From positions 1,753 through 65,752 of the forward strand of contig JBIKNF010000010.1 of assembly GCA_044358835.1 (NCBI GenBank): DNA of 64,000 nt, given 5' to 3'. The notes beneath the pieces are model-generated. The model was not told the origin of the DNA. It worked only from the letters and a program-made list of their open reading frames with translations, and did no database searches. A program made the position numbers and the translations under genes. Source of the stretch: Vampirovibrionales bacterium (GTDB lineage: Bacteria > Cyanobacteriota > Vampirovibrionia > Vampirovibrionales > JAJTHC01). Below are positions 2,815 to 55,197 of this stretch, piece after piece; position 1 is the first letter of the stretch, and every line of letters begins with the position of its first letter.

Positions 2815-3118
2815 TTTCTCTATTGTCCCTTATGTATTTATGCCAAAAAATTGTATGAAGTCTTTAAAGGTGAGGGGTAAATTCGATTTTTTACCGTTCT
2901 TACCGTTCTGTATTGGGTTAGATTGCTTTGAAGTGGTGCAATCTCTTTACTGTCTCGCTTTAATAAACAATGCCCAATCCTTAAAATTGCCTAAATTTTT
3001 TTGTTTTGTTACAAGTTGTTACAGTGTAAAAAATGCCTGCACCGCTTTAGTCAGGGCAAGGCAATACCAATCAAACGACTAAATAGCATATTTAAACGTC
3101 TTTAAACCAAAAGCCTGT

Positions 3119-5309: not shown

Positions 5310-5518
5310 AATACACACCTAACCTAGAACGTGCCTACTTTTAGGGGGCCTCCTTTCACAAATAATTTTCTAAACTCCTCAAATCCCTCACAAAGGCAGA
5401 TGCCCTTTAGCAAGCCATTGTTCCGCTGCATTATGCGAAGGTGGCCTGCGAAATGGATGAAATTATGAAACCGTAGGGCGTCTTCGAAGACCGTTTCATC
5501 TATTGAACACTATACCTG

Positions 5519-9610: not shown

Positions 9611-11311
9611 ATGATGACCCAGCCCCCTGAAACCGTCCAAAACCCAAAGGAAGATTCCCCGTGGTGGGTAAAGACGAGCCTTGTTTTTTTTATAGGGGCA
9701 GTCTTACTGCGGCTGGTGAGCTTTGGCGTAGCCCCCTTGTTTGACACTACAGAATCTCGTTATGCGAACATGATTCAGCACCTGCTGTTACGGAATGATT
9801 GGCTGGTGCCTTATAGCCCTACATTTCATCAACCCTTTTTTGGCAAGCCCCCCTTTAGCTTTTGGGTGGGAGGCTTAAGCGTCCTAAGTTTTGGTTCAAA
9901 TGAATGGGCCTTTCGTTTCCCTAATTTTATTGCCATGCTATTAACGTTATGGGCCACCTTTGCACTTGCAAAGAAAGTGGCCAATACCCAGGTCGGGATT
10001 TTGGCGGTTTTACTGCTTATTTCGTGTGGGTTTTTTAATGCGATTGGAATGACCGTTTCCATGGATATGTGGGTCTGTGCCAGTGTGATGATCGCCTTAT
10101 TGAGCTTGTTTCATTTGCTTGAAATAAAAGATGCTTCTTCAACGGTGAAGACTATTGAAGAAGGCCGTTTGACTGCTTCCTGTTCTCACCCCGTGTTTTG
10201 GCATGTTTTGTTGACGCTGGCCCTTGCCATGGGAGTGATGACCAAAGGCTTACTGCCCTTAATTATGACCCTGACCCCTTTAGGGATTTGGGTGATTTTG
10301 GCACAAGAAGTCCCTTCCCTTAAAAAAGTGGCGTGGCATTGGGTAATTTTAGGTGTGTTGCTTCTTTGCGTTCCCTGGTTTTGGCGAGTCCAGGTAAAGT
10401 TCCCTGATTTTCTATATTACTTCTTTGTGCAGGAACACTTGTTAAGGTACATCACCCCCAATTACGGAGACCGTTACGGCAGTGGGCATCTTCGTCCTTA
10501 TGGCACCAGCCTTTGGTATTTTTTGGTCGCGTTGTTACCGTGTTCCGTGTTTCCTCTTTTTGGGTTGCCCTCTTTGATGAAAGACGTCTTTAAACGCCCC
10601 AAAGAACGGATTCAACGCTCTTTCCAGCAGGGGGTTGTAAGGTTACACACTCATTCAGCAACCACGTTTTTGTGGGTGTGTATGCTCTTTCCCGCCTTGT
10701 TTTTCTCGGTGGCCAAATCCATTCTTATGACCTATGTGATGACAGGCTTGCCTCCAGCGACGATTCTTTTGGCGCGATTATGGCATCGTAAAATGCCTTG
10801 GATTTACGCAAAAAGTGCAGGTTTATTTTTAGCGGGCTTGGTGACGCTTGGGATTGCCTTATGGTTTGGGGGATGGGGCTTTGATGCCGTGATTCAGCAA
10901 CCTCAATTTGGGGCGAAAGTCTTTCCTGACTACCGCAGTATGCGGAGCGTGGTGACACGCCTCAAGCAAGAAAATCCTGAGTTACTGGATCGCCCTGTGG
11001 TTGGATGGTTTAACAATGTGCCATTTTCTTGGTTGTGTTACCTTCAGCAAGATGAAACCAATACCGCAAGACGCCTTTGGTGGAAAGGCCTACCTTACAC
11101 GCCTTCGTTTAAAAGTCGTTATGAACCCCGAGAAATTCAAACCATTGAAGCCCTTAAATCTCAAGCGGTGCCATTTTTACTCATGACTTGGGAGCGGGAT
11201 AAAGAACACACCCCCTTTTTAAATGCCCATTGGCCCAAGCGCCTCGTTCGTAAAGCCCTTCACAAATCAAAAAAAGGTGTTACACTATATTTAGTGACTT
11301 CTTCTCGGTAA
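9611..11311 (+). CDS. GT-C fold membrane glycosyltransferase, ArnT/PMT-like (family GT83/GT39)
   Basis: 566 aa, polytopic. N-terminal loop FDTTESRYANMIQHLL, followed by multiple TM helices and a soluble C-terminal domain, as in ArnT-type undecaprenyl-phosphate sugar transferases. Confidence 0.7.
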   Translation: MMTQPPETVQNPKEDSPWWVKTSLVFFIGAVLLRLVSFGVAPLFDTTESRYANMIQHLLLRNDWLVPYSPTFHQPFFGKPPFSFWVGGLSVLSFGSNEWAFRFPNFIAMLLTLWATFALAKKVANTQVGILAVLLLISCGFFNAIGMTVSMDMWVCASVMIALLSLFHLLEIKDASSTVKTIEEGRLTASCSHPVFWHVLLTLALAMGVMTKGLLPLIMTLTPLGIWVILAQEVPSLKKVAWHWVILGVLLLCVPWFWRVQVKFPDFLYYFFVQEHLLRYITPNYGDRYGSGHLRPYGTSLWYFLVALLPCSVFPLFGLPSLMKDVFKRPKERIQRSFQQGVVRLHTHSATTFLWVCMLFPALFFSVAKSILMTYVMTGLPPATILLARLWHRKMPWIYAKSAGLFLAGLVTLGIALWFGGWGFDAVIQQPQFGAKVFPDYRSMRSVVTRLKQENPELLDRPVVGWFNNVPFSWLCYLQQDETNTARRLWWKGLPYTPSFKSRYEPREIQTIEALKSQAVPFLLMTWERDKEHTPFLNAHWPKRLVRKALHKSKKGVTLYLVTSSR

Positions 11312-12431: not shown

Positions 12432-13352
12432 TTAACAATGTTGCGCATAAAGGGCTAAACTATAAGCACATTGAATGCTTTGGTAGACGTTTTGTATTTT
12501 TATAGCCAGTGGGGTGTTTTCATTAAAGCACAAGGGCAATTGAATCGTGGTACCATTGACGCGTTCTGAATGAGGAAGTAAAGCACAAGCATCTGCCATT
12601 AAAGGGGAATGGAACTGTATCTGAACTTCAAAATCGTTAAGGGGACGCGCTTCAGAGAAATGGGCTAAGGCTTCTTTGGCTTGCTTGTTTTGAGCGGGCG
12701 TTCGTTCGCACAAGGCTTTAAATACGGTGGCTAAATGTTCTTCTGCTTGAGGCACCCCTTGAACGCATTGCCAACCTCGTCCAAGCTTAGAAACCACATG
12801 AGTCCCCTGACCAAGGTACAGGCAATTGTCTTGTAACGCCTCTAGTTCATGGCCTAGAATGTCGTCTCCGTATATTAAGGCCACAGGCACCCCAAAGCCC
12901 AATTCAGCCAGTAAAATGCTCAATCCCGCTTCCCCTAAGGAAAGGCCATTAAAGCGAATGTCTGCGACATCTTCTGTAAAGGTATGCGCTAATGGAGCAT
13001 GTAAAGTCCCAGCTTTAGCATGATACCCCAGTAAAAGGCAGGCGTCAAAGGTCTCATCAAGTCCTGCCATCATACCAAAGCGTTTGGGTTTGCCTGAAAT
13101 TACTTCTACACAGGCTGGGAAGCCCACGTCCGCCAAGAAAAGGTTTGTCATGCTGGCGTGGGCATCGTTAATGACGATGCGGTGGCTTGCAATGGATGTG
13201 ATGTCTTGAAAAAGACGGTCAAGCGTTCGCTTGACTTGTTGAAGTGCCACTTGATAGCCTTGAAAATCTTGCGGTTGTTGAGGAAAAACCTGCTTGGCAT
13301 GACTAATCCCTGAAAAGCCTTCAAAATCAAGTGAAATATAAAATGAACTCAT
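12432..13352 (-). CDS. Peptidase M55 family (D-aminopeptidase DppA-like)
   Basis: The N-terminus MSSFYISLDFEGFSGIS matches the MKxYISxDxEGxxG opening of the DppA/M55 family. 306 aa. Confidence 0.5.
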   Translation of the reverse strand: MSSFYISLDFEGFSGISHAKQVFPQQPQDFQGYQVALQQVKRTLDRLFQDITSIASHRIVINDAHASMTNLFLADVGFPACVEVISGKPKRFGMMAGLDETFDACLLLGYHAKAGTLHAPLAHTFTEDVADIRFNGLSLGEAGLSILLAELGFGVPVALIYGDDILGHELEALQDNCLYLGQGTHVVSKLGRGWQCVQGVPQAEEHLATVFKALCERTPAQNKQAKEALAHFSEARPLNDFEVQIQFHSPLMADACALLPHSERVNGTTIQLPLCFNENTPLAIKIQNVYQSIQCAYSLALYAQHC

Positions 13353-14485: not shown

Positions 14486-16771
14486 ATGACGTTTTCTTTC
14501 CCTTCCTTTCCCAATCCTCGTTCTATTCAAAAGCATCTATCTTTCAAAGGGTTTCACTATGGTTGGGTGCCTTTCGTTGCAATGGCACTCACTCTAGGCC
14601 TCTTTAATCCTTTTATGAACTTGCTATTGCCTCAGGCTTCAGCAACCAATTACCCTGTTTCTATTTTACCGACTGAAAATATAGCACGCCCAGCGGTGAG
14701 TATCTTTAAGGGTATTAAGGTGGCTCCAGATTATGCTCGCGTGGATTTAAACTTGAGAAATACTAGTATTGTTGATATTTTACAATTACTGGCGGAACAA
14801 GGACATTTTAATATCATTGTGGACGAATCAGTCACAGGAGTCATGACAGTCGATATTAAAAATATCAGTGTCAATAAAGCCTTGGAATACATTTTTATTA
14901 CAGGTGGATTGAGCTATACCCAAGAAGGGAATACCCTTGTTGTGGCGAATACGGCGACGACCAATGCCCGTTCTTTAAATGCAAAAATCTTTAAAGTGAT
15001 TCCGATTAAATATAGAGATGCGGGGCAGGTTTCCACCCAACTGAATCAAACCATTTTTGCGGCGAATAAACCGGGTACGAATAATATGGCGGTAGCCACC
15101 TTTGACCCGAATACCAATAGCTTATTAGTGGTGGCGACGGATCGTGAAGTGGCGTTGATTGAAGAGCTTTTGCCACAACTAGATTTGCCTCGTAACCGTA
15201 AAGTTTTTAAAATTATGCATGGTAATGAAACAGCAATTGCTCTTTCTGTTTTTACGACCCTTACCGCTGGCTGGGCAAGTAATTCAGCTGGTGGTGCAGC
15301 AGGCGGTGCAGCTGGTGGTGCAGCTGGTGGTGCAGCTGGTGGTGCAGCTGGTGGTGCAGCAGGCGGTGCAGCTGGTGGTGCAGCAGGCGGTGCAGCTGGT
15401 GGCGCAGCAGGCGGTGCAGCTGGTGGTGCAGCAGGCGGAGCAGCAGGCGGTGCAGCTGGTGGTGCAGCAGGCGGAGCAGCTGGTGGTGCAGCAGGCGGAG
15501 CGGCTGGTGGCGCAGCAGGAGGAGCGGCTGGCGGAGCAGCAGGAGGAGCGGCTGGCGGAGCAGCAGGAGGAGCGGCTGGCGGTGGGCAGTCTTTTCAAAG
15601 AGGTGGTTTTTCAATGGTGCCAAACCATGCCACAGGTACGGTAACGGTGTATGGCACCCCTGAACAATTACAATTGGTGGAAGAATTGATTCATGAACTA
15701 GATGTGGCTCGTCCCCAAGTAATGATTGAACTTTCTTTGATCGAACTGAGCAAATCCAACACAAAAGTCATCCAACCCATTACGAGTGGTCCGATTGGGT
15801 TTGGCGAGTTTCAAATCGCCACATTTACAGGTTCACCTTTTACATATGGAGGTAGAGCCTTAGGTATTTTAGGGGGTGGATCTAATAACGGATCGGTCGG
15901 TAAGTTTCGACTACCAGGGATAGGGTTTAACTTTAACAATAACGACACCAAAGCAAAAATTTTAGCGAATCCCACCCTTATTGCGGTGGATGGCACCACT
16001 TCTTCGGTTAGCATTACTGATACGATTGTATACTTTACGTCAACAACGACCGTGCCTGCCGCTGGAGTACCTACGGTAACGTGGCAAGCCAATAACCAAG
16101 AAGTCGGAATTAAACTTGAATTAACCCCAGTGATTACCAATGATGGTAATGTGACCATGGCACTCAAACCTTCAGTAACTCAACTGATCTCGCTGAAAGA
16201 AGGGGGAGGTGGTGCGGTAAGTGCTCCTGAAATTGCCACACGTGAGTTTACGATTGCGTCTGCTCGAGTAAAAGATGGGCAAACTCTTGCCATTGGGGGC
16301 TTGTTAAGAGATACGCGCAATGAATCATGGGACAAAATACCAGGACTCGCTAACTTACCCATTGTAGGAGCCATGTTCCGTTCCACGACTTCTGCGGGTA
16401 ACACGACCCAACGAACGGAACTCGTCGTTTTGGTCACGCCTCACATTCTAAAAGAAGAAGTGAACTCGCCTTACTTTGACGGTGACCCCAAACCCGCTTC
16501 CGATTCTGATGCGTTAACGGTGCCTCAACATGGAAGAACTGGTACACCCCTCGCTCCTTCAGAAGTAAAAGTGATGGGCGAAAAAGGTGGGGAACTTAAG
16601 ATAGAAACCGGTCGTTTGGTCATGCCCGAACCCCAAGCCCCTAAAAGTAGTGAAAAACTGGAAAGATCTGTCAAACGTAAGCAGGCAAAAATGGAAGACC
16701 CTTATAGTGTGACGCCTTATAATGACTACATAGGTGGCCTCAATCGTAACTTTGGTAGTAATTTCAAGTAA
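14486..16771 (+). CDS. gspD: Type II secretion system secretin GspD containing a 105-aa (AGGA)n low-complexity insert
   Basis: N-terminal secretin N domains, then the conserved C-terminal secretin domain (ANPTLIAVDG...VTPHI). The insert is encoded by the tandem DNA repeat at about 15284-15598. Confidence 0.8.
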   Translation: MTFSFPSFPNPRSIQKHLSFKGFHYGWVPFVAMALTLGLFNPFMNLLLPQASATNYPVSILPTENIARPAVSIFKGIKVAPDYARVDLNLRNTSIVDILQLLAEQGHFNIIVDESVTGVMTVDIKNISVNKALEYIFITGGLSYTQEGNTLVVANTATTNARSLNAKIFKVIPIKYRDAGQVSTQLNQTIFAANKPGTNNMAVATFDPNTNSLLVVATDREVALIEELLPQLDLPRNRKVFKIMHGNETAIALSVFTTLTAGWASNSAGGAAGGAAGGAAGGAAGGAAGGAAGGAAGGAAGGAAGGAAGGAAGGAAGGAAGGAAGGAAGGAAGGAAGGAAGGAAGGAAGGAAGGAAGGAAGGAAGGGQSFQRGGFSMVPNHATGTVTVYGTPEQLQLVEELIHELDVARPQVMIELSLIELSKSNTKVIQPITSGPIGFGEFQIATFTGSPFTYGGRALGILGGGSNNGSVGKFRLPGIGFNFNNNDTKAKILANPTLIAVDGTTSSVSITDTIVYFTSTTTVPAAGVPTVTWQANNQEVGIKLELTPVITNDGNVTMALKPSVTQLISLKEGGGGAVSAPEIATREFTIASARVKDGQTLAIGGLLRDTRNESWDKIPGLANLPIVGAMFRSTTSAGNTTQRTELVVLVTPHILKEEVNSPYFDGDPKPASDSDALTVPQHGRTGTPLAPSEVKVMGEKGGELKIETGRLVMPEPQAPKSSEKLERSVKRKQAKMEDPYSVTPYNDYIGGLNRNFGSNFK
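15284..15598 (+). repeat. Tandem 12/24-nt repeat array (gctggtggtgca gcaggcggtgca)n, about 26 x 12 nt, in frame inside gspD
   Basis: Read directly. The repeat encodes AGGAAGGA... and produces the three overlapping artefactual ORFs on both strands in the track. Confidence 0.9.
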
Positions 16772-16804
16772 TGTTTGGCAATTCCCCGGTGGATTTAAAA
16801 GGAG

Positions 16805-18610
16805 GTGAGTGTTTTGTCCCTAGGTGTCGTTGAAGGAAGCGCCAGTCTTATTCTTCAAAGCGTGATTAAGTATGTACGAGATGTCAAAAAAATAAGTCCC
16901 GATGTACTAATTGCCATTATGGAGCGTTCCGAAAAGAATAAACTCTCTCTAGATGAACAGTTTCTTAAAGAAGGTGTTTTGACTCGAGAAGAGTTGGTCC
17001 AAATCGTGACCAAGTGCTTCCCTGTCAAGTATTATTCTTTAGAAAACGTCCAACCTACGGCGGAATTACTGGAACTGATTCCTGAAGAAATTATTGAAGA
17101 AAAATATCTAGTGCCTGTTTCTAATATACATGGGCGCTTGGTTATTGCCATGATTGATCCAACCGATACGGCAGCAATTGAAGAAGTGACTGTTTTAAAA
17201 GGTATGCGTCCACAGATTGTGTCTATCTTGCCTATGGACTACCGCCAATGGATGCTGAAATTTGAAGCTCAACAGTCCTTAAGAGCCAGAGGGAACAAAG
17301 AAGCGACTCGAGATTTATTGGATCAACTTGCCAATGCAAGCCAAGTAAAACTTTCTGCCCAAGCCCAAAGACTAGACAACATTCGCGCGATGGGTGAAGC
17401 AGAAATCCAAGACACTTCAGACCCTCTCGTACGTTTTGTAAACTCAATGTTGATTCAAGGCGTCGTGCAAGGCGCTTCAGATATTCACATCGAACCGCGA
17501 GAAGGCCATTATGTCGTACGTTTCCGTTCGGACGGGGTGTTGAAAGAAATTTTAGATATTCCGCAAAACATGGAAGGTGCTGTCATTACCCGCTTAAAGG
17601 TTATGGCAAAAATGGATATTTCTGATCGTCGTCGGCCGCAAGATGGTCGGATGTCGATTCACTATAAAAAAGTTGAATATAACTTTCGAGTCAACACGCT
17701 TCCTGTGACAGAAGGGCGTGAAAAAATGGTTATGCGGATTTTGCGTCCGTCCGCCACGGTGACGGATTTCACCAAACTAGGCTTTACGCAAGAAGATGCC
17801 ACTAAAATTGAACTGCTCTATAAAGCTCCGTATGGTATTGTACTGGTGTGTGGACCAACAGGTTCAGGTAAATCTACCACGTTGTATACTATTATGAACA
17901 AAATCAATAGTGAACTCATTAATGTTTCGACTGTTGAAGACCCTGTGGAATTAAAAATTGAAGGCTTAAACCAATCCCAAGTCAATGCCAAAGCCGATTT
18001 TACGTTTGCTAGTTCGATGCGAGCCTTATTGCGTCAAGACCCTGATGTTATTATGGTGGGTGAAATTAGAGATTACGAAACCCTTGAAGCAGGGATTCAT
18101 GCTGCGTTGACGGGTCACTTAGTGTTTTCAACCATTCACGCCAACTCAACAGCAACCACCATTACCCGCATGCTTGAAATGGGGGCATCCAGTAGTTTGA
18201 TTTCTGCGGCGATCAATGGCGTGATTGCTCAGCGTTTAACGCGAGCTTTATGTCCCCATTGTAAAGAAGCCCATGAAGCGACGGATGAACAAAAAGAAAT
18301 TTTATATGAGTTCTATGAAACGGCCCCCGATATGAAGGAGCCTTTGACGATTTACAAGGCCAAAGGCTGTGAAATGTGTAAAGATTCTGGCTATTTTGGA
18401 CGTACTGGCCTTTATGAAATTATGATGATTGACCGAGAATTACGTCACTTAATTGCTTCTCAAGTCAATGAACTAGAAATTGAAGACACTGCCATGAAAC
18501 GTGGCATGATTACTCTAGGAATGTGTGCCAGAACCAAAATTATCGAAGGCAAAGTGGATTTTGCTGAAATTGAACGAGTTTTAGGTCCTTTTAGAGGAGG
18601 CAGTCGATGA
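16805..18610 (+). CDS. gspE: Type II secretion or type IV pilus assembly ATPase GspE
   Basis: Walker A box GPTGSGKST, Asp and His boxes, and a C-terminal tetracysteine motif CPHC...CEMC. The true start is probably TTG at 16814, nine nt after the aaaggagg ribosome-binding site. Confidence 0.85.
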   Translation: MSVLSLGVVEGSASLILQSVIKYVRDVKKISPDVLIAIMERSEKNKLSLDEQFLKEGVLTREELVQIVTKCFPVKYYSLENVQPTAELLELIPEEIIEEKYLVPVSNIHGRLVIAMIDPTDTAAIEEVTVLKGMRPQIVSILPMDYRQWMLKFEAQQSLRARGNKEATRDLLDQLANASQVKLSAQAQRLDNIRAMGEAEIQDTSDPLVRFVNSMLIQGVVQGASDIHIEPREGHYVVRFRSDGVLKEILDIPQNMEGAVITRLKVMAKMDISDRRRPQDGRMSIHYKKVEYNFRVNTLPVTEGREKMVMRILRPSATVTDFTKLGFTQEDATKIELLYKAPYGIVLVCGPTGSGKSTTLYTIMNKINSELINVSTVEDPVELKIEGLNQSQVNAKADFTFASSMRALLRQDPDVIMVGEIRDYETLEAGIHAALTGHLVFSTIHANSTATTITRMLEMGASSSLISAAINGVIAQRLTRALCPHCKEAHEATDEQKEILYEFYETAPDMKEPLTIYKAKGCEMCKDSGYFGRTGLYEIMMIDRELRHLIASQVNELEIEDTAMKRGMITLGMCARTKIIEGKVDFAEIERVLGPFRGGSR

Positions 18611-18666
18611 CAAAGCCAGTTACCGATTATTTAATAGGCATAAAAATATAGATAGGAGCTTAAGCA

Positions 18667-19899
18667 ATGGCAAACTACGCTTATAAAGCCGTGAATTTGG
18701 TTAGTCGTAAAAAGCAAGAAGGGGTCATCCCCGCTTCCAATGAAATGGAAGCACGTTCTAAATTAAGGGAAATGCAACTTTCAACGCTTTCTTTAGAAGA
18801 AGTCACGGGGTATCAAGACGGGTCAGGCACTCTCGTTAAAAAGGGATTTAAATTTGGCTTTAAAAGTAAAGTCAGTAGCAAAGAAGTCATGGCTTTTTCT
18901 CGAAACTTGGCGATTATGATTCGTGGGGGGATCCCTATTACAGAATCTTTACTTTATTTTGAAAACTTTTCAGAAAAGATTACCTATAAAGCCATGGTAC
19001 AATCCGTACGTCGAGACATTCTTGGCGGTATGCCCTTTTCAGAAGCCTTAGGTAAGTTTCCTGAAGTGTTTAGTACTATTTTTATTAACATTACCCGAGC
19101 AGGAGAAAGTTCAGGGGAGCTGGATGTTACGATGGAACGTATGGCAGACCTCATGGAACGCACCGAAAAAATTAAAGCCAAAGTGATTTCAACAGCCATT
19201 TACCCTGCCATTGTGTTGGGCTTAGTGGGCATCGTTTTACTGGTTATTTTTTACTTTGTGTTGCCGTCTTTTGAAAAAATCTATACCCAAATGGGGGTGG
19301 ACTTACCGTTAATCACCAAAGTTATGATTTTTATTTCCAACTGCTTGCGAAGTGGTTGGTTTATTACGCTTCCTGCGGTGGCTTGTGCAGTGTGGGGGTT
19401 CATGAAATTTATTTCTACTAATTTAGGTAAACGCTTGATTGACCAATATGTGATTTATATTCCAGTTCTCAAACAAGTCATTCGATTTACAAACGTGTCA
19501 AGCTTTATTTCTACCTTGAGTGTTTGTTTTGGAGCGGGTATTCCGATTACAGAAGGGTTGGATTATGCGGTTTCAACGGTAGGGAATGCCACCTATCGAA
19601 CCACACTGATGAATGTCAATACGCAAGTGCAGACAGGACGACGTTTGGGGGTAGCCTTAGCTGAAACAGGTATTATTCCTGAACTGGTTTTGCTGATTGT
19701 GGCAACGGGCGAAGAGTCGGGGAGCTTGGATCAATCTTTGGGCACTGCCCAAGAATATTTGGAAAAAGAAATTGATCAACGGATTGGGGTGTTGATGTCT
19801 TTTATGGAACCTATACTTTTGATGTTTTTGGGGATTATTGTTGGAATTGTAGCCTTATCCATCTACATGCCGCTCTTTAGTATGTATGAAAATATGTAG
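18667..19899 (+). CDS. gspF: Type II secretion inner-membrane platform protein GspF
   Basis: 410 aa with two GspF/PilC-type cytoplasmic domains and three TM segments. It directly follows gspE. Confidence 0.8.
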   Translation: MANYAYKAVNLVSRKKQEGVIPASNEMEARSKLREMQLSTLSLEEVTGYQDGSGTLVKKGFKFGFKSKVSSKEVMAFSRNLAIMIRGGIPITESLLYFENFSEKITYKAMVQSVRRDILGGMPFSEALGKFPEVFSTIFINITRAGESSGELDVTMERMADLMERTEKIKAKVISTAIYPAIVLGLVGIVLLVIFYFVLPSFEKIYTQMGVDLPLITKVMIFISNCLRSGWFITLPAVACAVWGFMKFISTNLGKRLIDQYVIYIPVLKQVIRFTNVSSFISTLSVCFGAGIPITEGLDYAVSTVGNATYRTTLMNVNTQVQTGRRLGVALAETGIIPELVLLIVATGEESGSLDQSLGTAQEYLEKEIDQRIGVLMSFMEPILLMFLGIIVGIVALSIYMPLFSMYENM

Positions 19900-28189: not shown

Positions 28190-29701
28190 TTGATGGCCAA
28201 AGTAAAACGTAAGTATGTCTGTCAGTCCTGTGAATATGAATCGGCGGTGCATGTGGGGCGCTGCCATAATTGTGGTGCGTGGAATAGCTTTCAAGAAGTC
28301 GTCGAAGCCCCTGCTTCGCTCACACAAGTGCCAGCCTACGCCAGCTTAAGCCGTGGGGATTTAGATCTAGAAAGTGAAGCCTCATGGAGCGGGAACATCC
28401 CCACGCCGTCTTTCAGCGGCTCACCCCTTTCAACGGTTCCGCTTTTTAGCACCGATAAAATTCAGCTCATGCCGTTGTCAGATGTGGATATGACCACAGC
28501 ACCACGATTTTCAACCTTAATGCCTGAATTGGATCGTGTCTTGGGCGGAGGTTTACTACAAGGGGCATACATCTTGGTGGGGGGCGACCCTGGTATTGGA
28601 AAATCCACTTTGATGATTCAAGCAGCAGCGAACTTAGCGGATTCTGGCAAAAAAGTGGTGTATGTGACAGGTGAAGAATCAGGTGTGCAGATTAAGCATC
28701 GTGCGGAACGCTTACAGTTAAAAGGGGCATGCCAAATCTTGCTTCTGGCAGAAGTGAAGCTTCAAAACATTTTACAAGCCATTGTGGCCGAAAAGCCCGA
28801 TGTCCTCATTGTTGATTCTATTCAGTCGCTGATGGATGTTAATGTGTCTGGTACACCGGGTGCTAACAACCAAGTGAAAGCCTGTGCAAACGCTCTTATG
28901 CAAGTGGCGAAAGGCTTAAACATCACCACGTTTTTAATCGGTCATGTCACCAAAGACGGACAACTTTCAGGCCCTAAATTGCTAGAACACATGGTGGATG
29001 CTGTTTTGTACTTTGAAGGCGAGCGTTACAAGGATTTAAGGCTCTTGCGTTCGGTGAAAAATCGTTTTGGTTCTACCCAAGAAATGGGCGTGTTTGAAAT
29101 GCAGGAAAGTGGTTTGAAAGACGTCTTGAATCCTTCAGAAGTCTTTTTGTCGGATGCGGCGTTACATCCAGTCCCTGGGTGTGTGAGCGTCTGTTGTTTA
29201 GAAGGGAGTCGCCCTTTATTGATCGAGTTGCAGGCTTTAGCAGGGCAAAGCGTGTATGCGTCGCCTAGGCGTGTGGTCAATGGGGTAGAGACCAATCGAT
29301 TGCATCAGGTAATTGCGGTATTGGAGCGTCGGGTGGGGTTGAGCTTTGCGGATCTAGACTTGTACATCAATGTGGTAGGGGGTATGAAAATTGATGAACC
29401 TGCTGTTGATTTAGGCATGGCCTTGGCATTGGTGACCAGTTTGCGAGACGTAAGCGTCAAATCAGGCACGGTGCTGATGGGGGAAATTGGGCTGACAGGG
29501 GAAATTCGTCGCGTGCGTCGTTGGAGAGAACGACTAATAGAAGCCATAAAAATTGGATTTACCCGCATTGTGTTGCCTTGGCCACAAGGCCGAACACAAG
29601 CCGAAGATGTAGAGGCCTTGAAAAAAGAGTTGCCTGTGGGTGTAGAACTTTACTTTGTGCGTAATATCCGAGAAGCCATTACCGCCTGTTTAGACGCTTG
29701 A
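28190..29701 (+). CDS. radA: DNA repair protein RadA/Sms
   Basis: N-terminal zinc ribbon CQSCEYES...CHNCGAWNSF, Walker A box GGDPGIGKSTL, a KNRFG motif, and a Lon-protease-like C-terminal domain. A roughly 60-aa Ser/Pro-rich insert follows the zinc finger. Confidence 0.9.
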   Translation: MMAKVKRKYVCQSCEYESAVHVGRCHNCGAWNSFQEVVEAPASLTQVPAYASLSRGDLDLESEASWSGNIPTPSFSGSPLSTVPLFSTDKIQLMPLSDVDMTTAPRFSTLMPELDRVLGGGLLQGAYILVGGDPGIGKSTLMIQAAANLADSGKKVVYVTGEESGVQIKHRAERLQLKGACQILLLAEVKLQNILQAIVAEKPDVLIVDSIQSLMDVNVSGTPGANNQVKACANALMQVAKGLNITTFLIGHVTKDGQLSGPKLLEHMVDAVLYFEGERYKDLRLLRSVKNRFGSTQEMGVFEMQESGLKDVLNPSEVFLSDAALHPVPGCVSVCCLEGSRPLLIELQALAGQSVYASPRRVVNGVETNRLHQVIAVLERRVGLSFADLDLYINVVGGMKIDEPAVDLGMALALVTSLRDVSVKSGTVLMGEIGLTGEIRRVRRWRERLIEAIKIGFTRIVLPWPQGRTQAEDVEALKKELPVGVELYFVRNIREAITACLDA

Positions 29702-30482
29702 GCGTATAGGCTTTTTTACCATCCCTGTTACATTGTTTACAATAAAGGCAATTTTAAGATTTATTTTATCTTTATTAAAGCACAGAGGAAAGAGTCCTTC
29801 ACTCCTGTGCCTCTTCTACAAAACTCCTATTGTTGAATCCCCCTGATGTTTTACCCCCCTCCTTGTTCAAGCGTCGCTGATGTATGACGTGCTTCTACAC
29901 GTGATCTTTTTGTACGCACCATGGTTCAGATTCCCCGTTGCTTGTGTATCGAGCGACTTGTGTATCTGTTTCGGGTCTTATTCCCCTTTTTTGTTTCTAC
30001 CTGTTCCCCCCTATTAAATAAAGAGAAATAATCACTGCTATGTCGTTAACTGAACCTCAAATTTCGTCCTTATTAGGTTACATTGCTGAACCTGTTCAAA
30101 ACAAAGTGTCTCAAAAAAATCATGTAAACTTAAAAGAACTGATGGTAGTTTTTAAAGAAGTCGATGCCCAAAGAAACTTGCAAATGCCTTCAAGCATTGA
30201 GCAACGCTGGATCGATTTTTTGCCTTGGCATTCATTTAATTAATCAACGTTCACGGAACAAATGTTCTTCTAGCACTTTAAACGTCAAATGTTTTGCGGC
30301 AGGCGTTTTATTGAGACGCTTTATGTAACAAAATAAAACATTTAGCAATAAAATAGGTGTCAAAATATATCCCCCCTTGCAAGACAAGACAACTATTGAT
30401 ATTGTGAAGAATACCGTCACATTCAATCCTTATTTTATACGTCTTATTTGTACTCAAATAGTCAAAGAGAACCCCTTTATCT

Positions 30483-31550
30483 ATGGTTCGTCAAACTTTA
30501 AAGAATACTTACCATACGAGTTCATTGTACCTGCTAAAGTTCTTGGCATTTTTAGAATTGAATCCGTTGAAACGTGCTGAGCTGCAGGCTCTCTTTGAGC
30601 AGGATGCTGACTGTCTTTCCCCGCTTTCCACAGACACGTTACGTCTGTATGCCAATGCTCTTGAAGACCTGGGTTGCTTGTTGCAACGCCCTGACAAAAG
30701 CAACGATTTTCAATACAAGCTTAACTATTCCCCGTTTTGGGTGCAGTTTTCTTCTGAAGAATGGAAACTCCTTTTGCATAGTTTGGACAGCAAATTGAGG
30801 ACCTGCCATATCCAAAGTTTTGTGCGTGTTTATGAAATGGCCGAACATTTGCTGGCACAAAAATTTCTGACCCCCCAAGCCCAGAAAGACTTACAAGCAT
30901 TATTGAATCGCTATATTCAGCCCTTTCAGCTTAAGAATGTGAAAATTTTGGAACGTGCTACGGAATTAAATAGCTGGTTTTTGGTGCAGTATCAAGGAAA
31001 GGATGCCGTTTATGAATGGCAGGTATTACATGACGCACTGATTCTAGATCATCGTCGCTTGTATTGGCTTTGCTATCAGGTCAATCCTGAAACAGGCGAT
31101 ATTTCCCCTCTAATGCTGCGGCTAGATCGTTGTCGAAACATTTTTCCGATTCCTGCTGTGAAGGCTGACGTCTATGAGCCGACACGGCGCCGTATTTTAA
31201 GCTATATAGAAGAAGAACCTGTGTTAAGTTGTACGGTGGTATTGCCTAAAGGAATGAACTTTCTTTCCCCACGTTTACGGGGTGAACGGCTTGTGTTTTT
31301 AAGTCAAGACTCACAGCAAGCCTTACCTTTCTGGCAAGATATTACGGATTTTTATGGTGTAGAAACCTATGCAATACAGTACACCGTAAAAACAACCCAT
31401 TTGTTTTACCTCCTTCAGTGTTTAAAGTCCTCAGGTGGTTTCCTGATTCCTTTAACTTCTGCTTTTTCAAAAGCATTTGCCAACAGCCAAGAAAATAGGG
31501 CGTTTGAAAAGAAAAAAAGATCCGTAGAAGAAAGGGTAATGAGCGTATGA
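30483..31550 (+). CDS. Putative HTH plus WYL-domain-like transcriptional regulator (PafB/PafC/YafY-like), first of a tandem pair
   Basis: N-terminal HTH-like segment, a central HRRLYWLCYQVNPETGDISPLMLRLDRCRNI that resembles the WYL domain core (W-Y-L ... FRLDRI), and a C-terminal extension. Overlaps the next gene by 4 nt. Confidence 0.45.
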   Translation: MVRQTLKNTYHTSSLYLLKFLAFLELNPLKRAELQALFEQDADCLSPLSTDTLRLYANALEDLGCLLQRPDKSNDFQYKLNYSPFWVQFSSEEWKLLLHSLDSKLRTCHIQSFVRVYEMAEHLLAQKFLTPQAQKDLQALLNRYIQPFQLKNVKILERATELNSWFLVQYQGKDAVYEWQVLHDALILDHRRLYWLCYQVNPETGDISPLMLRLDRCRNIFPIPAVKADVYEPTRRRILSYIEEEPVLSCTVVLPKGMNFLSPRLRGERLVFLSQDSQQALPFWQDITDFYGVETYAIQYTVKTTHLFYLLQCLKSSGGFLIPLTSAFSKAFANSQENRAFEKKKRSVEERVMSV

Positions 31551-32533
31551 CCTTCTCAGGCGTTTCAGATCCTTTTAAGAAAACTCCTCCCCTGGTGATT
31601 CCTGCAGATTTGCATAGCACAGCAAAAAGGGTGCTCAGTATTATTTTAATTTTACTTGACGGCCTCAAGGTCGAAGAATCTGCTTTAATGGAAACCTTAA
31701 GCCCAAATGGCGAAGAACCCATTCCTTATAATACCTTGCGTAAATACATACGTACCTTGCGTTATGCGGGTTTTGACATTGTCAGAAAACGCTTTGAAGG
31801 TTCGGTTGTTTACTTTTTAAATGACACCAAATTTCATTTGGACTTAAGTGTTCAGCATGCCCAAGGCTTTGAAGAGTGGGTGAGCTATTTATCTAAATCA
31901 AGCTTGCTTTACCGTAAGTTGATGATGCTGGTGTCGCCACCTTTTCGGATTGGCTTTTGGGAACCCCATTTTGCGTATAATCAAGCTTCGAGTCTTACGA
32001 TGTTTGAGGGCAAGGAACATTTAAAACTTTTACAAGACGCCATCGCTTCTAAGGAGCTTTTAGAGTTTCAGTTGTATGACGATGTGCAAACTCAAACCCA
32101 AGTGGCTAGATTTTGGGCCAGACCTTATGCGCTTACCCAGTTTCGACAAAGAGATGCTGTTATTTCCGCTATTCATCCTTATAATCGCCAAGTGTTTTAT
32201 GTTAGGTTGAGTAATGTGAGGCAGTTACGTCAGGTGCCAAAACAGTGGTTGGCTTCTGAATGGCTTAAAACAATGGACTTTCAACTGGTGTTAGCCCCCC
32301 ATTTTTCTAAACGTTATGAACTCAAACCCCATGAAACACGGGTAGCCACTTCCCCAACGGGCGAAACCTGCATACAGGTTTCAAAGGAATTGCAATATAA
32401 AGCACTGTCTCGATGCATTAAATATGATACACTAACACAAGTGCGTGGCGCAGATGCCTTGAGTGAAAAAGTCCAAGCATTTCAAAACTTACAAACACGC
32501 ATTGCGGAAGAAGCCAAAATACCTTTCGCTTAG
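31547..32533 (+). CDS. Putative HTH plus WYL-domain-like transcriptional regulator, second of the tandem pair
   Basis: N-terminal AKRVLSIILILLDG...NTLRKYIRTLRYAGFDIVRKR (DeoR/YafY-type HTH) and a central LEFQLYDDVQTQTQVARFWARPYALTQFRQRDAVISAIHPYNRQVFYVRLSNVRQL, which follows the WYL pattern. Confidence 0.45.
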   Translation: MTFSGVSDPFKKTPPLVIPADLHSTAKRVLSIILILLDGLKVEESALMETLSPNGEEPIPYNTLRKYIRTLRYAGFDIVRKRFEGSVVYFLNDTKFHLDLSVQHAQGFEEWVSYLSKSSLLYRKLMMLVSPPFRIGFWEPHFAYNQASSLTMFEGKEHLKLLQDAIASKELLEFQLYDDVQTQTQVARFWARPYALTQFRQRDAVISAIHPYNRQVFYVRLSNVRQLRQVPKQWLASEWLKTMDFQLVLAPHFSKRYELKPHETRVATSPTGETCIQVSKELQYKALSRCIKYDTLTQVRGADALSEKVQAFQNLQTRIAEEAKIPFA

Positions 32534-32551
32534 AAGGTAGGCCGCAGGGAG

Positions 32552-33025
32552 ATGAATCTGATGCAAGTGTATGTGTTTTTCGGTAGTTTGGCGAGTTCCT
32601 TACTTATTTATGGGATTGTGTATTGGCAATTAAGGTCTTCTTTTTCTAATTTACTGAGCAATACGTTTCGTAAAAAATCAATGCCCTTATCTACAACGCA
32701 GAACCTTGCAGACCCAGTCAAACCTTCCAACCCTTCTTCACCAGTGACCCTTCATATAGAAGAACAAGGGTATTTAAGGCTTTTAAATGTGGTGTACTTT
32801 TTGTTTGTAGTCAATGGCTTGGTAACTGTGGCCAAAAAAGTGACTTCGTTACAAATTAAAAATTTTACTCAAGCTATTCAGATTTGGGCCGATATAACAA
32901 GTAGTCAACTTTTTTGGTTGGGATGCTTTGCCGTTTTGTACGTGGTGGCTTTATTGGTGATTAAAGATCGCTTGCAGGATTCGTTAGAAAATTCAGCGCA
33001 TAGCGATTCGCCACAACCTTGGTAA
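32552..33025 (+). CDS. Hypothetical integral membrane protein
   Basis: 157 aa with 3-4 hydrophobic helices. It is in the same operon-like string as the WYL-like pair and the pseudopilin. Confidence 0.4.
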   Translation: MNLMQVYVFFGSLASSLLIYGIVYWQLRSSFSNLLSNTFRKKSMPLSTTQNLADPVKPSNPSSPVTLHIEEQGYLRLLNVVYFLFVVNGLVTVAKKVTSLQIKNFTQAIQIWADITSSQLFWLGCFAVLYVVALLVIKDRLQDSLENSAHSDSPQPW

Positions 33026-33049
33026 ACTAAAATACAAGGAACTCGATGA

Positions 33050-33673
33050 ATGAAATTTTCCTGCTTTAATCGTTTTACTCAAGCGTTTACTTTGTCTGAA
33101 GTTTTAATTGTGTTGGGTATTATGGGCTTATTGACTACGATGTTTTTGCCATCTTTTATTGAAAATCAAACACGAAATAACTGTGCTTATCTAATCAAAT
33201 CGAGCATTTTGGCGTCTAATAGTCTCTTAGAAGACGCTTTTGCGTTTTCTCGAACCAATTTAATGAATGAAGCCGTTGAGCGCTTGACAACGATTCGTAA
33301 TTGTGGAGGCACCACGAATACGGCTACTACAGGAGGGTGTTGGAACACAACATCGCAACAAGCCTTACCCGCCAATGTGGCAAACGAAGGGGTGTTATTA
33401 AAGAATAACGCCGCCATCATTGGTTTTGATTCTACGGTACAGGCCACTGATGAACTCTTACGTTTTGTTATTGATGCCAACGGGCTAGCGGGTCCTAATG
33501 CTGTAGGGGTGGATCAAATCAATTTAGTCACTTGTACGACCGTCGCGTTTTGTCAAGCCAATACGACGATGCAAGGCCTCGCTGGGCAAGGATTCAAGGT
33601 GGTGCCAGGGCAATTGCTGCCTGTGGATGCTGCATCTGTGGCGCTTTACAACAGGGCTTTTCAACAAACGTAG
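33050..33673 (+). CDS. Type IV pilin-like or pseudopilin protein (prepilin-type N-terminus)
   Basis: Short basic leader MKFSCFNRFTQA, then FTLSEVLIVLGIMGLLTTMFLPSF: Phe at +1 and Glu at +5 followed by a hydrophobic helix, the canonical PilD substrate motif (Ala rather than Gly at -1). Confidence 0.55.
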   Translation: MKFSCFNRFTQAFTLSEVLIVLGIMGLLTTMFLPSFIENQTRNNCAYLIKSSILASNSLLEDAFAFSRTNLMNEAVERLTTIRNCGGTTNTATTGGCWNTTSQQALPANVANEGVLLKNNAAIIGFDSTVQATDELLRFVIDANGLAGPNAVGVDQINLVTCTTVAFCQANTTMQGLAGQGFKVVPGQLLPVDAASVALYNRAFQQT

Positions 33674-33796
33674 CGAACACTATATAAAAATAGCATCCGA
33701 ATACAACAACAAGGAGTCCTCATCAGAATAGACCGCAATTGTTCTAGGATGCTATTTCATCACATGAATACGAATTTCTTTCTTGAAGAGAAAAGA

Positions 33797-34447: not shown

Positions 34448-34863
34448 ACGTAACGATTAGAAGGGGATTGATAACGCGACAAAAAGGAAAAACCTTTTGC
34501 AACTCAATTCTACCTAAATTGTAGTAGATTAGCAAGCATTTTTTTCACAGTAGGGTGAAAACGTTAAAAAATCGTTACATTGTGATATTTTCAAGCAAAA
34601 TAGTCAAGAAAAAAGGGGTCTTGATGGTGAACCCCCTTGCAAACATTCTGACTATACCAAGGGAAACACGTGGCGTGTTCATGGTTGTTCATACGAGTGG
34701 TCTGTTCGGTAAACGAAACACACCGTGTATGAAAGAACCCCCTTGCTAAAGGGGTATCGTCCGTTGGGGTAAAAAACTTGAGCGACTGTTACAGGAGATT
34801 ACAAACCAGTCAAACCCCCACGAATTCAGCAAGTACGGTTGGGGAAAAGTGACACGAAACGAT

Positions 34864-35805: not shown

Positions 35806-37095
35806 CTAGTCAAGTAGATCAAAGATTCCTCCGAGGTTTCTTTGGGTGTAACGCAACTTGCGCAAGGCCAGGTTTTCAGTTAGACTAATTTTGTCTTTAC
35901 CACAGTTCATTTCTTTCGCTATTTGTTCAAGCGTCTTTGGATCCTCTCCATCTAGTCCAAAACGCTTTTTTAAAACAACCTGCTCTTTTTCTGATAAAGA
36001 CTCCAGGGCTTTTGCTAGCTTTTCCTTCAATTCAAGCATTGACAAGGGTTCAACCTCATCTGGCATTGTTGCACGAATTAATTCCAAAAGGGGCGTTTCG
36101 CTACCAGCCATTGGTGCATCTAACGAGACGGTTTTAAGACTAAAAGCTTCTCCCACCTCTTCTAGCCCCTTTGCGTTCCATCTACCCTTTGGGTCTGTCT
36201 GCTGTAAATGTTCAAGCAGTTCGCTAGGAGTAGGAGCTTGACCAAGTTCCTTCCGTAATGTAGTTGTTGCTTTGCAGATTTTAGACCATTTTGCGGGCAT
36301 ATGAACAGGAAGCCGAATCGTACGGGCTTGATTCGCAATGCCACGCGTAATGCCTTGTCGGATCCACCAATAGGCATAGGTTGAAAACTTATAGCCCATT
36401 GTGGCGTTAAACTTTTCCGCGGCACGGCTTAGGCCTAAATTACCTTCTTGAATCAGGTCTAGGTAGTCTAGCCCCTTACCCCGATATTCTTTTGCGACAG
36501 ACACCACCAAGCGTAAATTGGCCTTTATCATGCGAACATGCGCCCGCTTGGCGGCTCGAACTATTCTAGCCTGTTTTTGGCTTAACGTTGGACGACTAGA
36601 TACATTATTGTTCGCACGGTATGCTTTAAGTATATCGTCTAATTCTGGATTTTTGATTACTTTACCTTTAGAGTCCAGAATTTCGCCTAATTCCGTTTTA
36701 AGTTCGTCAAGGTATGCTTTAAGTAAAGCAGTAAATCCTGGATTTTCGATTTCTCCTTTCTCGGAGCTTAGATTTGGGCTTATTTGCGTTCTAAGATCTA
36801 GGAGGATTTTCTCCCCCGCCTGGATTTGGTGAGCCAACTCAATTTCTTCGGCAGGCGTAAGCAACGGCACACGCCCTATTTCTCTGAGAAAGTCTCCAAC
36901 ATTCTCACCCCAAGTTCTTTTATTCCCAGTTCTTTGGGTGGGGGTAAAACAATCCGTCGCAGGATTTTTAAAGCCCCCTTGAGATCTACTGGTCAGTTGG
37001 GTTGGGTTGGGTTGGGTTGGGTTGGGTTGGGTTGGGTTGACTGGACTGGACTGGACTGGGGAAACACCCCACCTATAAAGTAGTTGTAGCATCAT
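35806..37095 (-). CDS. Sigma-70 family RNA polymerase sigma factor, a divergent paralogue with an N-terminal repeat region and an insertion between regions 1.2 and 2
   Basis: Region 1.2 (FLREIGRVPLLTPAEEIELA), region 2 ([51 protein letters not shown]) and region 4 (LSEKEQVVLKKRFGL...LRKL). Strong similarity to the adjacent sigma gene. The N-terminus, VNPTQPNPTQPNPTQ, is encoded by pentanucleotide repeats. Confidence 0.75.
   Translation of the reverse strand: MMLQLLYRWGVSPVQSSPVNPTQPNPTQPNPTQLTSRSQGGFKNPATDCFTPTQRTGNKRTWGENVGDFLREIGRVPLLTPAEEIELAHQIQAGEKILLDLRTQISPNLSSEKGEIENPGFTALLKAYLDELKTELGEILDSKGKVIKNPELDDILKAYRANNNVSSRPTLSQKQARIVRAAKRAHVRMIKANLRLVVSVAKEYRGKGLDYLDLIQEGNLGLSRAAEKFNATMGYKFSTYAYWWIRQGITRGIANQARTIRLPVHMPAKWSKICKATTTLRKELGQAPTPSELLEHLQQTDPKGRWNAKGLEEVGEAFSLKTVSLDAPMAGSETPLLELIRATMPDEVEPLSMLELKEKLAKALESLSEKEQVVLKKRFGLDGEDPKTLEQIAKEMNCGKDKISLTENLALRKLRYTQRNLGGIFDLLD
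36997..37059 (-). repeat. Two adjacent pentanucleotide microsatellites, (TTGGG)8.6 followed by (ACTGG)4 on the plus strand, i.e. (CCCAA)n(CCAGT)n in the coding sense, inside codons 12-33 of the sigma-factor ORF
   Basis: Counted directly: eight full TTGGG units at 36997-37036 plus a partial ttg; four ACTGG units at 37040-37059. Confidence 0.95.
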
Positions 37096-37220: not shown

Positions 37221-38270
37221 TTATTCAATATATTCCCGAAGGCGACGACTTCGGTTGGGGTGACGCAACTTACGCAAGGCCTTGGCTTCAATCTGACGAA
37301 TGCGTTCACGCGTGACGCCAAACAATTGCCCCACTTCTTCAAGCGTGCGTTGACGGCCGTCATCCAGTCCAAAACGCAAACGCAACACATCTCGCTCCCG
37401 CAAGGAAAGTCCTGCCAAGACTTCGGTTAAATCTTCACGCAACAATTCATGAGCCACGCTTTGAGCGGGGGCTTCAGCTTCACGATCTTCAATAAAATCA
37501 CCCAAACGCGAATCTTCTTCTTTACCAATCGGTGTTTCAAGCGACAATGGTTCTTGAGCGACTTTGATAATTTCACGCAACTTGTTAATCGAAATCGTCA
37601 TGCTGGCAGCGAGCTCTTCTTCACTCGGCTTACGACCGAGTTCTTGCGCCAGTTGACGGGTTTTTTTGCGGAGCTTGTTAATCGTTTCCACCATGTGAAC
37701 AGGAATGCGAATCGTACGGGCTTGATCCGCAATGGCGCGGGTAATGGCTTGACGAATCCACCACGTGGCATAGGTTGAAAACTTATAGCCCCGTTCGTGG
37801 TCAAACTTTTCAGCCGCACGAATCAACCCCAAGTTCCCTTCTTGAATTAAATCCAGGAACAACATGCCTCTTCCCACGTATTTTTTCGCAATGGAAACCA
37901 CCAAGCGTAAGTTGGCTTGTACCAATTTCTTTTTGGCTCGTAAGCCACCTTCGCCACCTTCAGCGATTTTACGCGCAAACTCAATTTCTTCGTCCGCCGT
38001 AAGCAGGTTGATTCGCCCAATTTCACGCAGATACATGCGAACAGGGTCGTCTACCACCACGCCTTTGGTGTCTACAGAAAAGTCCACAGTGTCATCATCG
38101 GTATTGGCGAGCATGCTGTTAATCACCACAGGGTTGCCGTGATTAAACAACGAAGCACTTTCATCCTTCATAAAATCATCTAAGCCAACATCATCATGCG
38201 TACTTCGCTCAGAACGATCGATGAGATCAATGAGGGCATCATCACTTTTGGTAGATCGTCGTTTCATCAT
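37221..38270 (-). CDS. Sigma-70 family sigma factor (RpoD/RpoS-like, regions 1.2-4; no region 1.1)
   Basis: [80 protein letters not shown], and a C-terminal [15 protein letters not shown]. 349 aa. Confidence 0.85.
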
Positions 38271-42983: not shown

Positions 42984-43095
42984 AAGGTAAACTCACTTTA
43001 TTACTGGGGGTTGGTTGTGCGTTGTACTTGTACATTCGTCAAAGACAAGGAAAGACTAAAGGGATTGTTAGAGTTTGTTACATTTTAAAAGAACA

Positions 43096-55107: not shown

Positions 55108-55197
55108 TCTCTGATGAGGCTTCCTGTAGTTGGCTTTTTAGATAGTTGGGTGTAGAATAAAGCTATATTTATGCAACCCCCCTTGAGACTTTACCTC

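Follow-up and report, generated by a model that had tools for sequence, protein, structure and literature searches.

Gene organization of the module

We analyzed a 64,000-nucleotide (nt) stretch of contig JBIKNF010000010.1 (positions 1,753 to 65,752, forward strand) from the Vampirovibrionales bacterium assembly GCA_044358835.1, hereafter called the window, and focused on a module of four genes that encode two candidate transcriptional regulators (proteins A and B), a small membrane protein (C), and a prepilin-like protein (D). All four genes lie on the forward strand: A at 30483-31550 (355 amino acids, aa), B at 31547-32533 (328 aa), C at 32552-33025 (157 aa), and D at 33050-33673 (207 aa). 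The A/B junction reads gtATGAcc, so that the two frames overlap by the 4 nt ATGA, and the coordinates leave gaps of 18 nt between B and C and of 24 nt between C and D. An earlier description of this DNA, made by a model without database searches (the sequence-only reading), had given the same four open reading frames (ORFs), and its coordinates, strand, overlap, and spacings all agree with the ORF list. The order from A to D is retained in related genomes at 39 to 94% protein identity; thus, the four are genuine genes rather than chance ORFs. The G+C content of the module is 0.40 to 0.43, compared to about 0.47 in its surroundings.

A long hairpin with an 11-bp outer stem (33688-33757, strand unassigned) separates D from the convergent downstream gene. 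The 151-nt region containing it has a folding energy of -27.9 kcal/mol (z = -2.73), a value equaled by none of 200 shuffled sequences. The hairpin carries no canonical T-run, and it likely marks the 3' end of an operon, where it may act as a terminator.

A and B are predicted wHTH-WYL-WCX regulators

The sequence-only reading had assigned a helix-turn-helix (HTH) and a WYL domain to both A and B and had suggested structure prediction as a check. In the AlphaFold2 (AF2) model of A (pLDDT 84.5, pTM 0.67), a winged HTH (wHTH; residues ~14-82) is followed by a helical linker (91-158), a five-stranded WYL beta-domain (165-222), and a WCX domain (225-354), the last being an alpha/beta domain with a long C-terminal helix (326-354 in the model). 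The model of B has its elements in the same order, at a pLDDT of 65. When the models were compared with the PDB by Foldseek, WYL regulators accounted for all 28 matches of A at E ≤ 1e-3 (PafBC, CapW, DriD, BrxR, and WYL1) and for all 27 matches of B, with alignments spanning about 280 to 375 columns and E values down to 1e-9. The domain order wHTH-WYL-WCX defines "class A" of the WYL-domain transcription factors (PMC6789036). A conserved proline ahead of the C-terminal WCX helix has been described for WYL regulators (PMC6789036); P323, which stands just before helix 326-354, does not vary in family A and reaches a conservation of at least 90% in the extended alignment, and no equivalent proline is evident in B.

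Sequence profiles led to the same superfamily by a transitive route. When 1.84 billion representatives were searched with a profile of family A, 200 proteins were retrieved at E ≤ 1e-3. Among 64 remote relatives sampled, 44 carry Pfam WYL (PF13280) and 29 carry WCX (PF25583), and the annotated ones bear names such as "WYL domain-containing protein [Vampirovibrionales]," "YafY," and "HTH transcriptional regulator [Melainabacteria]." At the sequence level, the profile extended with these relatives reaches PafBC, PafB, PafC, DriD, and BrxR among PDB entries, and family B aligns to the extended WYL alignment over 289 columns with an hhalign probability of 98.2% (E = 4.6e-14). Profiles built from A or B family members only found nothing among PDB sequences, even at E ≤ 10, and B gave a weak PADLOC WYL match (E = 0.011). 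Compared directly, A and B share about 12% identity, with a BLASTP E value of 0.028 and an hhalign probability of 3.8%, which is too weak to prove paralogy; their homology is therefore apparent only via the extended alignment. The earlier claim that A and B are paralogues thus stands at the superfamily level and finds little backing in the direct comparison. Altogether, by predicted fold and by transitive rather than direct sequence homology, we assign A and B with high confidence as divergent wHTH-WYL-WCX transcription factors.

A and B are coupled, and only A keeps the WYL ligand motif

A and B are adjacent in all 25 loci long enough to show it (loci are designated by L numbers where needed), including the deeper relatives L021, L023, and L025. 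Overlapping or abutting stop and start codons occur in five clades, as ATGA, GTGA, TAATG, TAA+TTG, and TAA+ATG with a zero-nt gap; gaps of 36 to 42 nt are found only in the deepest relatives, L023 and L025, whose pairs relate to A at an E value of about 1e-26.

The two proteins differ at the positions that bind ligand in characterized WYL domains; residue equivalence was taken from PMC11804915 together with hidden Markov model (HMM) alignments of the extended profile with PDB sequences. In PafB, Y196 and R211/R214 are essential for binding of single-stranded DNA (ssDNA), and the corresponding arginines of PafC are dispensable (PMC11804915). Family A carries the motifs LYWLCY...MLRLDRC, with invariant Y194 and R213 and with R216 conserved to at least 90%. 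Family B reads DAVISAIH...KLSN/D, with V205 in place of the WYL tyrosine and K/R220 followed by N/D223 in place of the second arginine, and the downstream partner in the L023 pair shows a B-like degeneration of the motif. Because A keeps the ligand-binding tyrosine and the Arg-x-x-Arg that B has lost, these alignments suggest that A is the sensing subunit and B a degenerate partner.

According to a 2025 study, no heterodimeric WYL proteins other than PafBC and its orthologues are known (PMC11804915), and our literature search for further ones returned only irrelevant papers. By analogy with PafBC, A and B probably form a heterodimer of a sensing subunit and a non-sensing partner. They might instead be two separate homodimers with different ligands or targets that share an operon, for example as repressor and anti-repressor or as two inputs on one promoter. 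This would fit the low identity between A and B, the noncoupled gaps in L023 and L025, and the fact that the characterized WYL regulators other than PafBC are all homodimers (PMC11804915); however, A and B strictly co-occur in every locus, their coupling is conserved in five clades, and a protein without the ligand-binding tyrosine and second arginine is better suited to the role of a non-sensing partner. We therefore regard two homodimers as unlikely.

D belongs to the type IV pilin class

D had been described as a prepilin-type protein. Its N terminus, MKFSCFNRFTQA|FTLSEVLIVLGIMGLL (mature start FTLSEVLIV), makes it the sole prepilin-motif ORF in the window. D scores 16.7 bits against TIGR02532 (cutoff, 16.3) and, just below the threshold, 20.8 bits against Pfam N_methyl (cutoff, 21.2). 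A profile of the D family matched 21 solved pilins and pseudopilins through the alpha1-N region, with E values of 2.5e-6 and weaker, and its position 13 (+1) aligns to residue 1 of the mature solved proteins. The glutamate at +5 (E17) and four cysteines are invariant in the family, and a hydrophobic stretch covers residues 9-38. No sequence relative of the globular part was detectable outside this lineage. From these sequence features, D is a type IV pilin-class protein, an assignment within which a major pilin, a minor pilin, and a type II secretion system (T2SS) pseudopilin are not distinguishable.

The canonical glycine at -1 is replaced by an alanine that is invariant in 11 of 11 aligned D family members and is also present in L021. 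Pilin-like sequences of the lineage read ECA|FTLIE (L019, 16066-16719, minus strand), TQA|FTLSE (window, 33050-33673), ARA|LTLAE (L004, 8424-9062), and VNA|FSLSE (L021, ~5950-6564); the L019 ORF is unrelated to D and likewise carries the alanine. Alanine at -1 thus seems to be a habit of the lineage, and it hints at a prepilin peptidase of altered specificity. PilD-type peptidases tolerate alanine at this position. Among the window ORFs scanned, none matched Peptidase_A24. The window does contain secretin, ATPase, and platform genes (14486-19899), and Vampirovibrio chlorellavorus is reported to have every gene that type IV pili require, with bundles of pili observed on its cells (PMC4451040).

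C, previously described as a small membrane protein, has three hydrophobic transmembrane segments by hydropathy (residues 5-24, 73-95, and 115-141) and no Pfam, NCBIfam, or PADLOC match. Its homologues hold the same position in close relatives and in L004, and the family is restricted to this module.

Conserved elements upstream of A

Comparison of the region upstream of A revealed three conserved elements on the forward strand. Box 1, TGTAACAAAA (30324-30333), is found as an exact 10-mer in 18 of 20 loci, 143 to 160 nt before the A start codon, including the clades with 51% and 56% identity, and with one mismatch in L016. Box 2, AATAAAATAGGTGTCAAAA (30347-30365; pattern AATA-AG-CAAA), has a relative, AAGAATATAGAGAACAAA, in L019 and L005, and it keeps a fixed distance from the -35-like hexamer: in three clades its ATAG core lies 24 to 25 nt upstream of CTTGC(A/T)A. 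The third element is a putative sigma-70-type promoter (30377-30405) composed of TTGCAA, a 17-nt spacer, and TATTGT, preceded by TGA. CTTGC(A/T)A with a -10-like hexamer about 17 nt on is kept in the window clade, in L019/L018, and in L005/L020. Box 1 is a candidate operator, and boxes 1 and 2 are candidate binding sites of the A/B pair.

A scan with consensus promoter and terminator models gave no excess of sites over shuffled sequence and failed to pick up the conserved A promoter. A search of the regulatory region with Rfam, at the gathering threshold and also at E ≤ 1, brought up no known riboswitch or other RNA, and the 261-nt leader folds no better than its shuffles (z = -1.6).

Distribution of the module and linkage of the pair to D

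Among 5.8 billion entries searched, homologues formed 12 clusters for A, 9 for B, and 14 for D. In a scan of reference genomes, the A/B/D family was found only in Vampirovibrionales metagenome-assembled genomes (MAGs), among them the complete Vampirovibrio sp. OL03a chromosome CP050876.1, which places the window in this predatory, non-photosynthetic sister lineage of the cyanobacteria; the pair is confined to genomes of the Vampirovibrionales/Melainabacteria type. Viral contigs held no relatives of the family; a mobile or viral origin was accordingly set aside. One MAG labeled Gammaproteobacteria holds a complete Vampirovibrionales module at 81% identity (L014, JBEISK010000040.1), and this contig is probably mis-binned.

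D is found after the pair in four of the five clades, namely the window clade, L004, L018/L019, and L021, and C is present in two (the window clade and L004). The genes flanking the module differ completely between clades while the linkage stays; therefore, the A-B-(C)-D linkage is kept by something other than inertia. The link between regulators and pilin proposed in the sequence-only reading thus holds insofar as the pair and D travel together, and control of D by the pair is what the gene order would suggest. No paper linking WYL regulators to pilins or to Melainabacteria was found in the literature.

Several features of the related loci accompany the module. The large B-C gap in L004 is due to the insertion of a repeat, about 235 nt long and bounded by terminal inverted repeats, of which the locus holds two further copies. 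This repeat resembles a miniature inverted-repeat transposable element (terminal repeats AGACCTCTTTCGAAAC), and its three copies lie within 13.5 kb (~5440-5560, 7725-7960, and 10240-10400). Upstream of the deeper pairs lies a conserved, divergently transcribed gene for a tetratricopeptide repeat protein of about 580 aa (L023, 3012-4754, minus strand; L025, 144-1847, minus strand); different clades, these data suggest, couple the pair to different partners. An orthologous metallophosphoesterase (46 to 51% identity) is encoded near the pair in L004 (9130-10059), L005 (5694-6593), and L021 (1926-2993, minus strand), and L004 and L021 also have a UPP synthase upstream. The metallophosphoesterase was set aside as a module member, since neither its position nor its strand is constant and the window and L019 have none near the pair; its occurrence near the pair elsewhere is probably residual synteny.

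A model for the module and the evidence against it

We read the region as a single operon, promoter-A-B-C-D, that is specific to Vampirovibrionales and encodes a probably heterodimeric, asymmetric WYL regulator co-expressed with, and likely controlling, C and D. We place the probability of this reading at about 0.6; control of D by the pair, taken by itself, carries roughly even odds.

The mechanism that we infer includes the formation of the heterodimer, the identity of its ligand, the binding of the boxes, the direction of regulation, and the incorporation of D into a fiber. Start/stop coupling would keep A and B at a fixed ratio, and the two would be joined via their WCX domains, as in PafB/PafC. 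A would sense a ligand through the WYL tyrosine and the Arg-x-x-Arg of the beta4/beta5 loop, with B as the structural and DNA-binding partner. Ligand binding would alter the activity of the dimer at the promoter upstream of A (TGTAACAAAA, AATA-AG-CAAA, and TTGCAA-17-TATTGT), whose output would set the levels of A and B themselves and of the co-transcribed C and D. A prepilin peptidase would then cut D after the alanine at -1, and D would become part of a type IV pilus or pseudopilus fiber built by machinery such as that encoded by the secretin, ATPase, and platform genes at 14.5 to 19.9 kb.

A number of results weigh against this reading. The HMM searches proposed at the outset (WYL PF13280, HTH_11, WCX) came back empty: neither A nor B matched a WYL, WCX, or HTH_11/HTH model in Pfam and NCBIfam, and a Pfam search of all 22 family A/B members yielded no WYL or HTH match even at E ≤ 10. 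Confidence in the B model is moderate (pLDDT 65, pTM 0.33). TM-scores of A and B against PDB WYL regulators are low (0.2 to 0.33), probably reflecting the differing domain orientations of flexible multidomain proteins, so that structural support lies in the local fold and domain order and not in a rigid global match. A has no equivalents of the PafB basic patch (R181/R204/R208), with W179 and a neutral to acidic loop (199-209) in their place; therefore, ssDNA is not to be assumed as the ligand. The promoter hexamers match the consensus at 8 of 12 positions, and for this reason the support for the A promoter lies in conservation (phylogenetic footprinting) and not in match quality. Boxes 1 and 2 are absent upstream of A in L004. 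Box 1, with one mismatch allowed, occurs 10 times in the window versus 12 expected; it was therefore dropped as a regulon marker for lack of enrichment. Finally, the L005/L006/L020 clade has the pair without C or D, and the deepest pairs (L023 and L025) have no pilin gene alongside; thus, D is not an obligatory partner.

The upstream 67-aa gene and recurrent promoter-like elements

A gene encoding a 67-aa protein of no known family (30040-30243, plus strand) precedes the module only in the window's clade. The protein is 82 to 100% identical across 12 loci, above the identity of A, with an invariant C terminus, MPSSIEQRWIDFLPWHSFN. Substitutions by codon position number 39:13:120, and the gene is therefore under purifying selection. 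No Pfam or PADLOC match was found for the protein, and it is absent from the more distant clades. In several relatives, a terminator-like hairpin follows the gene.

Upstream of the 67-aa gene lies a composite promoter-like element, TGTTACA-N3-TTTACAA...GGCAATTTTAAG...TTTATTAAAG (29726-29780, plus strand), which is conserved in all close relatives despite a differing upstream gene. The composite pattern (TGTWACA-N3-5-TWACAA, GGCAATTTTAAG, TTTATTAAAG) occurs twice in the window versus 0 expected; the second copy (2958-3023, minus strand) stands before a 108-aa coiled-coil ORF (2488-2814, minus strand). The element could be a site of an alternative sigma factor or of a lineage-specific regulator. 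In relatives, copies occur on the other side of the module (L019, 13225-13278, minus strand; L018, 6149-6202, minus strand), and in L019, a complete Vampirovibrio genome, the element is downstream of D on the opposite strand. It is followed there by about 400 nt without a convincing ORF (~12830-13225, minus strand) that end in a clear stem-loop and T-run (cctgtag...ctacagg TTTTTTT), a candidate gene for a non-coding RNA in convergent orientation to the pilin gene.

The tandem part of the element, GTWACA-N3-5-TWACAA, has its half-sites about one helical turn apart and occurs four times in the window (3006-3022, minus; 29727-29742, plus; 34788-34804, plus; 43065-43081, minus) versus 0.19 in mononucleotide shuffles. 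It is also found in L002 (4641-4657) and L004 (10226-10240). It precedes unrelated genes, namely the chemotaxis gene cheX, a gene with a fasciclin domain, and a DUF808 gene.

Surrounding genes and alternative roles of the pair

The window contains the transformation and recombination genes that the sequence-only reading had listed: radA (28190-29701), recN (55171-56955), recO (58068-58862), dprA (62335-63702, minus strand), and the secretin, ATPase, and platform genes described above; mutY is likewise present. These genes bear on the idea that the pair is an analogue of PafBC or DriD, that is, a global, ssDNA-activated regulator of a DNA damage or transformation regulon, with C and D as passengers or a minor target. 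PafBC and DriD are the closest structural matches, A retains the tyrosine and the Arg-x-x-Arg that serve in ssDNA binding, in the window and in its closest relatives radA is located directly upstream, and the tandem TWACAA motif, which is related to box 1 and exceeds its expected number, could mark a regulon. However, radA adjoins the module in those closest relatives only and the adjacency is lost in every other clade; recN, recO, and dprA are 22 to 30 kb away amid chemotaxis, primase, pyruvate:ferredoxin oxidoreductase, and other housekeeping genes; and the neighbor conserved across clades is the pilin-like gene, not a repair gene. Moreover, the basic patch of PafB is not conserved in A, and the tandem motif, given the genes that it precedes, could belong to another factor. 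Repair genes are thus not conserved neighbors of the module, which leaves the hinted link to competence and DNA damage unsupported, and we hold a global damage regulator to be quite improbable.

The resemblance to BrxR and CapW, together with the slightly lower G+C content of the module and the clade-to-clade change of its neighborhoods, might also point to a regulator of an anti-phage or mobile island in which C and D are effectors of an undescribed defense system. The sequence-only reading had mentioned such an association. PADLOC, however, detected no defense protein among A to D, the 67-aa gene, or the two downstream genes, and no integrase or other mobility gene lies near the module; viral contigs lack relatives, D is clearly of the pilin class, and the family stays, by vertical descent, within a single order. 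A role in defense is therefore very improbable. No proteasome or Pup genes were found in the window.

Two tandem genes of the sigma-70 family follow shortly downstream of the module on the minus strand (35806-37095 and 37221-38270); the first carries an NPTQPNPTQPNPTQ repeat at its N terminus and gave no match to region 3.

Discussion

Among known systems, PafBC, the heterodimeric DNA damage activator of Mycobacterium and Arthrobacter, invites the closest comparison with the A/B pair. In both cases two adjacent genes encode wHTH-WYL-WCX proteins, PafBC is among the top structural matches of A and B alike (PDB entries 9fnd and 6sj9), and the WYL domains are asymmetric, in that only PafB's WYL domain is indispensable for ligand binding and only A keeps the motif here. 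On the other hand, A and B share 11 to 15% identity with PafB and PafC, which does not amount to orthology, and the two systems belong to different phyla, Actinobacteria versus Cyanobacteriota (Vampirovibrionales), with no Pup-proteasome context in the latter. PafC retains its dispensable arginines, whereas B has lost them; A is without the basic patch of PafB; and the operon partner is a pilin-like gene.

DriD of Caulobacter, CapW, and BrxR share the domain order and fold of A and B (8tp8, 9c5g, 7qfz, and others), and BrxR and CapW resemble the pair further in that the regulator gene stands beside the genes it would control. These are single-gene homodimers, in contrast to the two diverged subunits known here from sequence; their ligand is ssDNA, and their targets are damage response or defense genes, which were not found at this locus. 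The nearest sequence relatives are the ordinary WYL/YafY-like regulators of Melainabacteria and Vampirovibrionales (E values of 1e-26 to 1e-10), which Pfam WYL and WCX models recognize, whereas A and B have diverged past detection by Pfam and NCBIfam. D resembles type IV pilins and pseudopilins (PilA, GspG, MshA, and ComGC) in its short leader, hydrophobic alpha1-N, and glutamate at +5, and its four conserved cysteines are consistent with a disulfide-stabilized pilin head; it differs in having alanine instead of the canonical glycine at -1 and a globular part without relatives outside the lineage.

WYL regulators make up a large class of ligand-sensing transcription factors that has come to be understood only recently and has so far been tied to DNA damage responses and phage defense. 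The locus described here is a candidate second two-subunit WYL regulator, from another phylum, with a clearer split into a sensing and a degenerate subunit and with a putative output of a different kind, a pilin-class surface protein. That it is an independently evolved, obligate heterodimer (the second after PafBC) that senses a nucleic acid or nucleotide and is dedicated to switching on the pilin and its membrane partner is a tentative proposal that we consider doubtful. The functional claims rest on sequence and predicted structure, and their present value is that of a well-defined hypothesis. The locus is of interest to specialists on WYL regulators and on predatory Melainabacteria and is not categorically new. 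That standard domain libraries missed the WYL proteins here implies an underestimate of how widely the family is spread. Bacteria of the Vampirovibrio type prey on algae and bear type IV pili, and a regulator linked to a pilin offers an entry point to the control of their surface fibers. If the pair is indeed a dedicated heterodimer, an intracellular signal, such as incoming ssDNA or a prey contact cue, would be coupled to the remodeling of a type IV fiber.

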